DNA from: Acidimicrobiia bacterium
Lineage (GTDB): Bacteria > Actinomycetota > Acidimicrobiia > Acidimicrobiales > CAIXPF01
Reading direction: 5' to 3'
DNA length: 43,789 nt
NCBI GenBank assembly: GCA_031422955.1
Contig: JANPEN010000048.1
Span: 1 to 43,789 of the forward strand
Part shown: piece by piece, positions 28,009-30,885 of the stretch
Position numbering within the stretch: the stretch's first letter is position 1
Layout of the letters: each line of letters begins with the position of its first letter
Made by a program: the position numbers and the translations under genes
Notes under the pieces: generated by a model
The model's input: only the letters and a program-made list of their open reading frames with translations
Database searches by the model: none
Told to the model about the DNA's origin: nothing

Positions 28009-28464
<456 letters not shown>

Positions 28465-28508
28465 GGCAACGGCTCGGCCGGCCCACCCGACGCGAGGCAG
28501 CGACGCGA

Positions 28509-28538
28509 AACAGCCCGGAGCTGAGGCCCCGGGCTGTT
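28509..28538. terminator. Bidirectional stem-loop between convergent genes
   Basis: AACAGCCCGG (28509-28518) / CCGGGCTGTT (28529-28538), a perfect 10-bp stem with a 10-nt loop, followed by TTCGTTGT on the plus strand. Confidence 0.7.
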
Positions 28539-28575
28539 CGTTGTGGGAGTTCGTGGGTTGGGCGGCGCTGCGACC

Positions 28576-29328
28576 TCAGCCGACGAGGTCCAAGTCGTTG
28601 CCGTCGGCGTGGTGCAGGTCGACGTCGACTTCGCTGAAGTCCAGCTCGGCCTTCCAGCTGTCGTTGTCCTCGTAGCGGCTGTTGTCCTCGTAGGTGTACT
28701 CCAGCGTGGTCAGCTGGGTGTCGTTGTCTTCAATGTCGGTGTTGAAGCTGTCCTGGAGGGTGGTGGACTGGGTGTCGTTGTCTTCGACCTTGGTGTTGAA
28801 GCTGTCTTCCACCTTGGTGTTGAAGCTATCCTCGACCGAGTTGTCGGTGTTGAAGCTGTCTTCGATGTTGGTGGAGTTGTCCTCCAGGGCGTTGGCGCTG
28901 TTGCGGTCCCCGAACACGAAGTTGGCCGGCCCGTCGGAGTTGGAGGCATCGACATCGATGTCGCCGAAGGTCTTGTTGCCGTTGCCGTTGACCACTTGAG
29001 CGTCGCCGCCGTCGGTGTCGACGTCGATCAGGTCACCCCTGCCCATGTTGACGTTCTCGCCCTCGATGTTGGTGGCGCTGCCCCGCTGGGCGAAGGCGCC
29101 CACGGTCGAGTCGTTGAACTGCACGTTGCCGTTGCCCACGGTGGAGTGGTCGAGGGAGACATCGTCCCCGGCCATGATGCCGGTGTTGAGGCCGGTGTTG
29201 ATGGCGGAGTCCTCGACGCTGCCGTTGACGGCCACGCCGCCGGCCAGAGCCGTAACCGAGTCACTGTCGAGGGTCTGATCGAAGTCGATGTCGTGGCCGG
29301 AAAGCTCGGTGATCGTCTGGTTTTTCAT
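28576..29328 (-). CDS. Highly acidic Asp/Asn/Ser/Thr/Gly-rich repeat protein, function unknown
   Basis: 250 aa from ATG 29328, preceded by AAAGGA. Minus-strand codons end almost exclusively in C/G, whereas the same-register plus-strand ORF 28543..29376 has low GC3. No Cys, no N-terminal hydrophobic signal. Contains (V/I)EDSFNT repeats. Confidence 0.75.
   Translation of the reverse strand: MKNQTITELSGHDIDFDQTLDSDSVTALAGGVAVNGSVEDSAINTGLNTGIMAGDDVSLDHSTVGNGNVQFNDSTVGAFAQRGSATNIEGENVNMGRGDLIDVDTDGGDAQVVNGNGNKTFGDIDVDASNSDGPANFVFGDRNSANALEDNSTNIEDSFNTDNSVEDSFNTKVEDSFNTKVEDNDTQSTTLQDSFNTDIEDNDTQLTTLEYTYEDNSRYEDNDSWKAELDFSEVDVDLHHADGNDLDLVG
28714..28857 (-). repeat. Intragenic tandem repeats (54-nt unit with a 24-nt sub-repeat)
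   Basis: CTGGGTGTCGTTGTCTTC at 28714 and 28768. GGTGTTGAAGCT at 28738, 28792, 28816 and 28846. These encode DSFNT(D/K)(I/V)EDNDTQ(L/S)TTL and KVEDSFNT units. Confidence 0.9.
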
Positions 29329-29421
29329 GGTCCTGGTCCTTTGGTGCTGGGCTCGTTCGCAGGCCGGATTGGCTGACAACTGCGACGGTACGCTCCCCCA
29401 GTCCGCACCGGATCGGGGCCA

Positions 29422-29452
29422 ACCCCTATCTCTACCGGCCCCCCATAGGGGT
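29422..29452. terminator. Weak hairpin after the amidase stop
   Basis: ACCCCTAT (29422-29429) / ATAGGGGT (29445-29452), an 8-bp stem with a 15-nt loop. It lies between the amidase 3' end (29479) and the start of the acidic-protein gene (29328). Confidence 0.3.
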
Positions 29453-29478
29453 GGTGTCGAGCCGGCCTGGCGGGCGGC

Positions 29479-30885
29479 TCACACGTGCAGGGGCGGCTGG
29501 CGCAGGTGCCAGTCGGTGCTTTGTTGATAGAGGTGGCCCACCCGCAAGGCGGTGGCGTCTTCGAAGGGGCGGGCGATGATCTGCAGGCTGAGCGGCAGCC
29601 CGTCGGGGTCGAAGCCCATGGGTAGGGCCAGTGCGGGAAAGCCGGTGCCGTTCCAAGCCGGGCAGTGCATGGCCCGGCTGGCGATGGCCTCCCGAGGGGC
29701 GCCCGTATAGGCGGTTGCCCCGTACCCCATGGTCGGGCTGACCAGGACGCTCAGCCGTTGCTCGTCCATCAGGGCCAGGATCTGTTCCCTGGCTGCCTGG
29801 CGGACCCGTTCGCATTGGACCAGGTCTCCACCGGAAATGAGTGCCCCCATGGCCAAGGTGAGCCGGGTTGGGCGCCCGTAGTCCTGCCAACGCTCCGCGA
29901 GCCAGTTGCGGTGATAGGCAAACGCCTCGGCCTGCAAGCCCAAGAAGGTGGCCGCATGCAGCTCGTCGTACAGGGGCGCCACCACCTCGGTGGTTTCGGC
30001 TCCGCCGCCGCGCAGCACTGCCAGCGCCTCCTGCATGGCCTGCCACGTCCACGCTGCGCTGTGGGCCTGGATGGAGTCGTTGGCCAGGATCCCGATGCGG
30101 GTGCCGGCCAGCGAGGGCCCCGCGGTTTCGAGGGCGGCGACGTAGTCCACCGGGGCAACTGCCACCGAGGTGCGATCGGAGGGATGGGCCCCCGCCATCA
30201 CGTTGAGCATGGCCGCGCAATCCCACGCTGAACGGGACATGGGTCCGAGATGGTCGTAGGTGTAGCCCAAAGGAAAGCAGCCGCTCTTGGGGACCAGCCC
30301 GTGGGTGGGTTTGTGCCCGGTGATGCCGCAGTAGGCCGCCGGCACCCGGATGCTGCCTCCGGTGTCGGTGCCCAACGCCCCCAGCATGAGCCCGGCCGCC
30401 ACCCCGTTGCCGGAGCCGGAGGACGAACCGCCCGTCCACCGTTCGGTGTTCCACGGGTTGCGGGGGAGGGGGAAGGGCTTGGTGCGGTCGGGCCGACCGA
30501 TGGCGAACTCCATGGTGGTCAACTTGCCCAACACGATGGCGCCGGCCTGACGCAACCGGGTCAGCACCGGGCCGTCGCCGGCGGCGCCCCAGGAAGGGTC
30601 CAGCACCAAAGACTGGCAGGTGGTGGGTCCCTCGTCGGTGGACAGAATGTCCTTGATGCCGAGGGGGATGCCGTGCAGGGGGCCGCGATCGTGACCGGCG
30701 GCCAGCTCGGCGTCCGCCGCCCTGGCTGCGGCCAGGGCGGTGTCGTCGAAGCGGGCCAGATAGACGCCGAGCTCGCCATCGAGACGGTCTGCTCCCTCCT
30801 GCAGGGAGCCCACCAGGGTTTCGCTGGTGATCTCGCCGCAGCGCAGGGCTGCCCCGGCGCTGGCGATGGTCCAGGGCTGGCTCAT
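29479..30885 (-). CDS. Amidase-signature (GatA-like) amidase
   Basis: GIPLGIKD (catalytic Lys region) and the TGGSSSGSG amidase signature. 468 aa. Confidence 0.92.
   Translation of the reverse strand: MSQPWTIASAGAALRCGEITSETLVGSLQEGADRLDGELGVYLARFDDTALAAARAADAELAAGHDRGPLHGIPLGIKDILSTDEGPTTCQSLVLDPSWGAAGDGPVLTRLRQAGAIVLGKLTTMEFAIGRPDRTKPFPLPRNPWNTERWTGGSSSGSGNGVAAGLMLGALGTDTGGSIRVPAAYCGITGHKPTHGLVPKSGCFPLGYTYDHLGPMSRSAWDCAAMLNVMAGAHPSDRTSVAVAPVDYVAALETAGPSLAGTRIGILANDSIQAHSAAWTWQAMQEALAVLRGGGAETTEVVAPLYDELHAATFLGLQAEAFAYHRNWLAERWQDYGRPTRLTLAMGALISGGDLVQCERVRQAAREQILALMDEQRLSVLVSPTMGYGATAYTGAPREAIASRAMHCPAWNGTGFPALALPMGFDPDGLPLSLQIIARPFEDATALRVGHLYQQSTDWHLRQPPLHV

Follow-up and report, generated by a model that had tools for sequence, protein, structure and literature searches.

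The question raised by this locus is what an extremely acidic, repeat-containing protein does among the catabolic genes of an Acidimicrobiia bacterium. The gene lies on contig JANPEN010000048.1 (assembly GCA_031422955.1), in a stretch of 43,789 nucleotides (nt) that was analysed as a whole and is called the window (43.8 kb) hereafter. An earlier reading, made from the letters and translations alone (the sequence-only reading), had taken it for a stand-alone gene whose product matches no family. The statement about families is true for Pfam and NCBIfam, where searches with the protein gave no usable match (even at E<=10 in NCBIfam), and is false for homologues, because 117 relatives were found and the body is homologous to that of IniB-type proteins. 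Biologically, the description as stand-alone is not supported, since about 5-6 paralogues occur per genome and the promoter is common to the copies in iniR/iniB/iniA/iniC-like clusters. The gene thus has homologues and paralogues, some of the paralogues are linked to dynamin clusters, and a common cis-element precedes them. Our answer, which we consider probable, is that the gene encodes a headless IniB-like member of an ini-type regulon, one of envelope stress and dynamins.

IniB is the product of the first gene of the iniBAC operon of Mycobacterium tuberculosis, which is induced by isoniazid and ethambutol under the STAND/LuxR regulator IniR. It is glycine-rich and has no known function, and the dynamin-like IniA and IniC are needed for vesicle release and are capable of membrane fission (PMC5760070, PMC10240201, PMC7350357, PMC6715688). 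IniB is located in the mycobacterial cell wall and in extracellular vesicles, and is co-induced with IniA/IniC (PMC10240201, PMC7350357, PMC5760070). A literature search for IniB-like, IniB N-terminal or IniB family proteins found nothing.

The gene itself is delimited as follows.

28576..29328, minus strand: coding sequence (CDS) of the 250-amino acid (aa) acidic protein, with ATG at 29328 and TGA at 28576-28578, based on the open reading frame (ORF) list, the G+C content at third codon positions (GC3), homologues and synteny.

The product begins with MKNQTITELSGHDIDFDQ. As the sequence-only reading had described, it is acidic and rich in D/N/S/T (D 16%, N 11.6%, T 9.2%, G 9.2%, S 8.8%, V 8%, E 6%), contains no Cys and has few basic residues (9 K+R), which gives a pI of ~4.05 and a net charge of -46. 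Neither a hydrophobic N-terminal segment nor a twin-Arg motif or lipobox was found in it by inspection, and the earlier statement that it bears no Sec, Tat or lipoprotein signal is upheld on that basis. Codon-position GC is 57/36/92% in a window of 67% G+C, as is typical of a native gene, so that the claim of native coding from C/G third positions also stands (GC3 92%). The start position, M(K/A/D)(N/E), is common to all short homologues, and the sequence upstream of it is noncoding. The gene is a real, correctly delimited and native coding sequence.

The 117 relatives, obtained by a word-indexed protein search, range from 98% down to 36% identity, and those with an organism label are all from Acidimicrobiia or Acidimicrobiales metagenome-assembled genomes (MAGs). 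Nearly all of them, dozens of sequences, are 247-252 aa long with an essentially fixed number of repeats, and therefore this is not a contingency-type variable repeat. The comparison of repeat number in related genomes that had been proposed as a check thus revealed no hypervariability. An exhaustive hidden Markov model (HMM) search of 1.84 billion cluster representatives gave 82 matches only, indicating that the family is small. A scan of species-representative genomes showed it to be expanded in several MAGs, to ~5-6 copies in each. Two genomes (L012 and L016) carry positional orthologues of the window gene, with neighbours 67-91% identical and with the common gene order amidase, gene, OB-fold, thiolase, BrkB and acyl-CoA dehydrogenase. 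Solitary copies in unrelated contexts account for ~20 of the 32 Acidimicrobiia loci, the window included.

The connection with IniB comes from the longer relatives. These are 330-530 aa in length and comprise about half a dozen of the 117 as well as most diverse representatives of the HMM search, and their match to the window protein begins at residue ~125-170. The N-terminus that precedes the match is recognised by NCBIfam NF038175 (IniB_NTERM) with E values of 1e-6 to 1e-9, slightly below the curated cut-off, and also by the precomputed Pfam PF27122 "IniB"; at E<=1e-3, IniB_NTERM is matched by 20 of the 44 long forms. Paralogues of ~400 aa amount to the window protein with such an extension in front, and over the body the identity between long Acidimicrobiia paralogues and the window protein is 55-60%. 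This body opens with ...DNRTITEINARGDVDFDQ, the same point at which the window protein starts, and the in-frame sequence upstream of the short forms is noncoding in every one of them. The coincidence of the two starts and the noncoding upstream frame together indicate that the window protein corresponds to an IniB-type body without the head.

This relation extends to proteins that already bear the name. When the profile of the Acidimicrobiia short forms was aligned by hhalign with that of 20 Pseudonocardia IniB_N proteins, which NCBI names "IniB N-terminal domain-containing protein", the probability was 98.7% (E = 3e-16) over 149 columns. Judged by hhalign and by body identity, the window protein shares a homologous, repetitive low-complexity body with named IniB_N proteins. 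It is not an IniB protein in the formal sense, because it lacks the defining N-terminal domain and its gene is not at the operon position. The best reading of these comparisons is that the window protein is an IniB-body-only ("headless") paralogue, a variant of the IniB-type proteins. With regard to the heads, we also observed that they match leader models of NHLP-type ribosomally synthesised and post-translationally modified peptides (RiPPs) below cut-off (TIGR04509, E = 1.7e-5; NF038399, E = 0.006), in residues 9-47 of the long paralogue P0080 and in other long paralogues. This hints at a possible kinship between the IniB head and the leader domains of NHLP/Nif11 type.

The gene context of the paralogues points in the same direction. 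Family members stand directly upstream of Dynamin_N gene pairs in 8 loci (L005/L030, L007, L010, L018, L022, L034, L035 and L038). In L007 a long form is followed by two Dynamin_N genes, and in L005/L030, L010, L018, L022, L035 and L038 it is a short form that is directly followed by dynamin genes. The first dynamin matches M. smegmatis IniA (PDB 6J72) over its full length with E = 8e-110, and IniR is the best NCBIfam match (E = 1e-45) of an 803-aa protein with a GerE domain that is encoded nearby. In Acidimicrobiia the clusters have three genes for membrane-associated Hsp70-like ATPases at their flanks, and in two of the three an FGE-sulfatase domain is fused to the ATPase. The small acidic proteins of 193-281 aa whose genes separate the Hsp70-like genes from the long form belong to the IniB_NTERM proteins too. 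No literature was found on the combination of dynamin, Hsp70 and FGE-sulfatase.

Outside Acidimicrobiia, relatives were obtained as weak partial matches from a peptide-pattern scan, which is blind to gene context. In Pseudonocardia, Ornithinimicrobium and an Acidobacteria MAG the match is immediately followed by an IniA/IniC-like pair, and an Hsp70 gene is found next to them; in Nostocoides and Crystallibacter a dynamin pair occurs within ~7 kb of the match and does not adjoin it. The ORFs consist of an IniB-type head and then a D/N/S/T body with the same DFDQxID...GAVAAGDDIEDS and DNSVEDSGNT / EDND motifs. As a separate observation on the Hsp70-like genes, up to three of them in a row are divergent from the IniB-like/IniA/IniC clusters in L007 (190-8746), L008 (1-7715) and L010 (366-7892), and further ones adjoin such clusters in L047 (7427-9370) and L051 (6263-8347). 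The clusters of Pseudonocardia, where the product has a predicted membrane-spanning segment, and of the Acidobacteria MAG contain a single one.

What joins the solitary gene of the window to these clusters is the sequence in front of it. For this comparison the 160 nt before the start codon were lined up for 29 paralogues, and invariant columns were taken from a 17-sequence alignment. The elements at the window gene are listed below.

29423..29451, minus strand: palindrome CCCCTAT-N15-ATAGGGG (29 bp), probable operator, with conserved arms and a spacer of free sequence.
29408..29426, minus strand: conserved block GGGGTTGGCCCCGATCCGG at the -35 position, of the promoter form GGGG-N4-CCCCGAT, with GGGG and C.CCGAT invariant across paralogues.
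29385..29390, minus strand: probable -10 hexamer TACCGT (TAnnnT), with T and A unchanged throughout the 17 aligned sequences.
29371-29379, minus strand: conserved block TTGTCAGCC, the likely transcription start region.
29337..29342, minus strand: ribosome-binding site (RBS) AAAGGA, read from the sequence, 8 nt upstream of the ATG; a purine-rich block occupies the same place in paralogues.

The order of the elements is CCCCTAT, ~14-15 nt of free sequence, ATAGGGG, 3-5 nt, (G)CCCCGAT(T/C)(C/T)G, 18 nt, TA(C/T)nnT and often TTGTCAGCC, and this architecture is common to solitary and dynamin-linked copies. When the downstream half of the promoter motif was searched as a regular expression, 50 sites were found in ~700 kb of Acidimicrobiia loci, compared with ~0.65 in shuffles, and the 43.8-kb window contained exactly one, at 29426 on the minus strand. 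A core and/or IniB-head gene begins within ~50-100 nt downstream of 39 of the 41 non-redundant sites. The other two are inside clusters, before a gene for an HlyIII-family membrane protein (L030 6563, minus strand) and before an Hsp70-FGE-sulfatase gene (L022 4921, minus strand), which suggests that the regulon is slightly wider than the IniB-like genes. In 38 of 42 sites, 18 nt separate the upstream block from the -10-like hexamer; this fixed spacing together with TAnnnT speaks for a promoter.

Since the palindrome is placed upstream of the block at the -35 position, it is best read as a DNA operator and not as an RNA hairpin. The sequence-only reading had reported a hairpin in the upstream region; the inverted repeat is real, but the 150-nt region as RNA folds no better than shuffles (z = +1.08), and what is present is a conserved DNA element. 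The arms stand 3-4 nt apart in one clade, as against 14-15 nt in the others; the difference corresponds to about one turn of the helix, which fits protein binding. An Rfam scan of 28300-29700 at E<=1 gave chance-level matches only, and hence no riboswitch or leader RNA is indicated there. The shared motif suggests that the window gene is co-regulated with its ini-cluster paralogues, and the IniR-like LuxR-family protein of the clusters is most plausibly the candidate regulator of the palindrome; the IniR paper reports no binding motif or site for comparison. The exact motif ATAGGGGNNGGCCCCGATYCGG was also looked for in metagenome contigs, and its 3 matches, none with a -10 element or a family gene, were dismissed as chance; the scan was also too strict to tell much.

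The body that the headed and headless forms have in common is not uniform along its length, and three regions are distinguished.

28879..29268, minus strand: conserved N-terminal domain, residues ~21-150, based on invariant Gly/Asn, the predicted local distance difference test (pLDDT) of AlphaFold2 and the ratio of nonsynonymous to synonymous substitution rates (dN/dS).
28618..28878, minus strand: C-terminal repeat region, residues ~151-237, with (V/I)EDSFNT and EDNDTxxTT units and imperfect arrays at 28695-28873.
28579..28617, minus strand: conserved acidic/hydrophobic C-terminal tail ending ...DVDLHHADGNDLDLVG, with the family consensus DVDxxxxDDNDxDLDx.

Exact tandem repeats, including a 54-nt unit, had been claimed for the C-terminal part. 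The 12-mer GGTGTTGAAGCT indeed occurs in 4 exact copies (28738, 28792, 28816 and 28846) against 0 expected, whereas the 54-nt unit is imperfect: Tandem Repeats Finder (TRF) reports a period of 54 at 28695-28819 with 2.3 copies and 76% matches, and a period of 24 at 28779-28873 with 3.7 copies and 74% matches. In the C-terminal part of the protein an 18-residue period is strong (z = 6.4), and in the N-terminal part the periodicity is weak (z ~2 at lag 18-19), with no convincing solenoid period in the analysis of that domain. The family alignment shows invariant Gly and Asn positions across residues ~27-143 and conserved DSFNT and EDND motifs beyond. The N-terminal 130 residues keep their invariant positions in relatives that differ by >40%, and the DSFNT and EDND motifs are kept even in the Pseudonocardia and Acidobacteria MAG relatives. 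The Nei-Gojobori method gave dN/dS values of 0.27-0.47 in the N-terminal part and of 0.36-1.3 in the repeat tail, figures that are soft and of limited value because the GC3 of 92% caps dS at ~0.4-0.5.

With an alignment of 136 sequences that included diverse long forms, AlphaFold2 gave a pLDDT of 80-89 for residues 21-150 and <50 for residues 153-237. By this prediction residues 21-150 form an ordered domain and the EDSFNT repeat tail lacks order. Structure prediction had been proposed as a way to choose between beta-helix and disorder, and its outcome is order in the one region and disorder in the other. The sole sequence-profile matches in the PDB were to coils of the left-handed beta-helix of LpxA/LpxD over ~70 positions, with E = 0.25-0.9 for the short-form family profile and a marginal E = 0.04 (LpxA) for the domain-only profile. 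Single-sequence Pfam matches were scattered, all at E >= 0.004, and included beta-solenoid families (FapA, DUF2807 and Hexapep) as well as unrelated ones; Hexapep was matched by 1 of 37 family members (E = 0.25) and not by the window protein. Clade-specific indels are rung-sized blocks of ~12-19 residues, which fit a solenoid. The beta-solenoid character that the sequence-only reading had derived from N-terminal periodicity is therefore favoured by the pLDDT and by the marginal LpxA match, and disfavoured by the weak period and the Foldseek search described below. The predicted ordered domain of ~130 residues is probably solenoid-like.

LpxA and LpxD themselves offer a limited comparison. The alternation of short hydrophobic positions with Gly/Asn at presumed turns resembles the rungs of their left-handed beta-helix, whereas the family has neither a Foldseek match to a beta-helix nor acyltransferase features, and the profile E values are those given above (0.04-0.9). 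The likeness is confined, at most, to architecture. At the other end of the protein, similar acidic/hydrophobic C-termini were seen by eye in short forms, in long forms and in the IniB_N-only small proteins of L007, L008 and L010, examples being DLDLVG, DVDLDFDDVI, DVGDFDLE, DDVGDELL and LFDDGLDQ. Any role of the tail at 28579-28617 is a matter of inference, and the motif seen by eye could be a shared docking peptide.

Several results weigh against the placement of the gene in the ini regulon and against the structural picture drawn above. No dynamin, Hsp70 or IniR gene lies within the 43.8-kb window, so that the link is by paralogy and the shared motif only. The helical N-terminal domain of IniB, ~50 residues long, is absent from the window protein, both by NCBIfam at E<=10 and in the upstream frame. 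Compositional bias may have inflated the hhalign score, although the aligned motifs are specific. Mycobacterial IniB is Gly/Ala-rich, and sequence likeness to it is not expected in the body. A generic sigma-70 scan calls no promoter at the window gene, and one subclade of short paralogues (L021, L024, L029 and L033) is without the promoter motif. With regard to the predicted domain, AlphaFold2 with 44 sequences gave a pLDDT of 40 and an unusable model, a Foldseek search with the better model found no meaningful match in the PDB or BFVD, and some pairs have tail dN/dS values close to or above 1. As for the subclade lacking the motif, its members start with MAEVNINEI..., and the copies in L021 and L024 adjoin Hsp70/FGE-sulfatase genes and thus may be regulated differently.

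Other explanations of the protein have to be weighed against the same evidence. It might act independently, as a Ca2+-binding beta-solenoid or beta-roll that is secreted or surface-located (an adhesin, matrix or S-layer-like protein), is exported non-classically and is unrelated to the dynamin system. The extreme acidity, the Asp/Asn/Gly richness and the conserved G/N positions would suit such a protein, as would the predicted ordered domain with its marginal beta-helix matches and the dispersal of most paralogues away from dynamins; mycobacterial IniB, moreover, is found in the cell wall despite having no signal peptide. We consider this unlikely nonetheless, because the protein, which has no Cys, shows neither a signal peptide nor a sortase, LPXTG or lipobox motif, no secretion-system or transporter genes lie near the window gene, and the promoter shared with ini-cluster genes and the IniB-type body homology oppose independence. 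The more specific case of an RTX/beta-roll adhesin was rejected, since the GGxGxDxUx nonapeptides (HemolysinCabind) are unmatched in Pfam even at E<=10 and nearby transporter genes are lacking. A bactofilin was considered and rejected as well. If, on the other hand, the protein were a largely disordered cytoplasmic polyanion with a non-specific role (cation buffer, osmotic or desiccation protectant, or nucleic-acid mimic), selected for composition and not for sequence, the predicted disorder of the repeat tail, its dN/dS near 1 in some pairs, the low confidence throughout of the 44-sequence model and the several dispersed copies would all be accounted for. The invariant positions, the pLDDT of 80-89 and the dN/dS of 0.27-0.47 in the N-terminal 130 residues do not agree with selection for composition, nor does the fixed length, and the specific shared operator implies a dedicated regulon; the chance of this explanation appears slim to us.

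The matches of IniB heads to RiPP leader models raise the further thought that a pathway of modification or export uses the protein as a precursor-like substrate, which would make it a leaderless relative of proteins with NHLP-type, RiPP-leader-like IniB heads. The IniB_NTERM paralogues do match TIGR04509, the model of an NHLP-related RiPP peptide (E = 1.7e-5), but below its curated cut-off; the 250-aa body is far above the size of a RiPP core, maturase and C39-peptidase transporter genes are found in none of the clusters, and the window protein has no leader at all, which makes the idea very improbable. Finally, G+C-rich DNA has long ORFs on both strands, and the frame could in principle have arisen by chance or as the antisense of a 277-aa plus-strand ORF at 28543-29376. 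This is effectively refuted by the GC3 of 92% in the frame of the acidic protein, by 117 homologues, with identities as low as 36%, that keep the start and stop, by the conserved RBS and promoter and by the syntenic orthologues, and we give it practically no weight.

If the gene is, as we think probable, a headless IniB-like member of the ini regulon, its role can be outlined. One regulator, most plausibly the IniR-like STAND/LuxR protein, would activate the ini cluster and the dispersed short copies at the same time, and the inducing condition would be membrane or envelope stress. The short proteins would then serve as bulk partners of the headed IniB-like proteins through the common domain, and both would work in dynamin-driven membrane remodelling or vesicle release. 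For this outline we infer the co-regulation, the identity of the regulator, the cellular location, the co-assembly and the biochemical role. A bolder version, which we hold to be rather doubtful, has the headed and headless copies co-assemble into a solenoid-based polymer or coat with IniA/IniC and membrane-anchored Hsp70-like ATPases, all under one regulator acting via the operator, as an envelope-stress machine for membrane repair or vesiculation.

The neighbours of the gene encode catabolic enzymes (thiolase-like, ChsH2-type OB-fold, amidase and acyl-CoA dehydrogenases), and the paralogues occur in unrelated contexts, so that the earlier statement of no functional link to these genes is borne out. 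On the downstream side the following element was found.

28508..28539, strand not assigned: G+C-rich hairpin with a 14-bp stem, a probable bidirectional terminator between the convergent acidic-protein and OB-fold genes.

A downstream terminator with a 10-bp stem had been noted here. The hairpin is real, and with its 14-bp stem it is stronger than supposed (z = -4.3 on the gene's strand; 0 of 200 shuffles fold as well), but it has no proper U-tract, and for this reason the consensus terminator scan made no call there; the single terminator-like site from the generic scan is inside the amidase gene. The earlier view of the gene as a transcriptionally separate unit is supported. In the ChsH2-type OB-fold gene (28009-28464, plus strand) we also observed a perfect (GACCGA) x 7.5 repeat at 28011-28055, which encodes (Thr-Glu)n after the start codon. 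It is 3 units shorter in the near-identical contig L001 and absent from the L012 and L016 orthologues, and is thus a strain-variable in-frame microsatellite.

The acidic-protein gene is less mysterious than at first sight, yet not ordinary. It shows that relatives of IniB occur far outside mycobacteria, and that the variable IniB "body" can be more than mere low complexity, namely a conserved domain for which folding is predicted. In Acidimicrobiia this body has been copied ~5-6 times per genome in headless form, with one sharply defined promoter and candidate operator. For annotation, a set of "hypothetical proteins" becomes a recognisable family tied to bacterial dynamins. Testable objects are now available in the 29-bp palindrome for the IniR-like regulator, in the domain of ~130 residues and in the natural headed/headless pair for the function of the head. 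Should the co-assembly version prove true, it would provide the first structured, tractable handle on IniB-type proteins along with a candidate IniR-type binding site.

Among known systems, the chaplins of Streptomyces offer an analogy for the coexistence of long and short forms. The long chaplins have an extra targeting or anchoring module and the short ones consist of the shared assembly domain, and they are hydrophobic, secreted amyloids with signal peptides. The paralogous sets are alike in having long and short members, all presumably expressed together. There is no sequence relationship, however, the window family is acidic and without signal peptide, and co-assembly is purely hypothetical here. 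The closer comparison is with IniB (Rv0341) of M. tuberculosis. Both proteins have a low-complexity repetitive body and no signal peptide, and the paralogues of the window protein carry the IniB head and hold the IniB position upstream of IniA/IniC near an IniR-like regulator. The window gene differs in having no head domain and in not being beside dynamin genes, and its body is Asp/Asn/Ser/Thr-rich and strongly acidic, whereas M. tuberculosis IniB is described in the literature as glycine-rich. A further difference from IniB is the expansion of the window gene's family to ~5-6 dispersed copies per genome.

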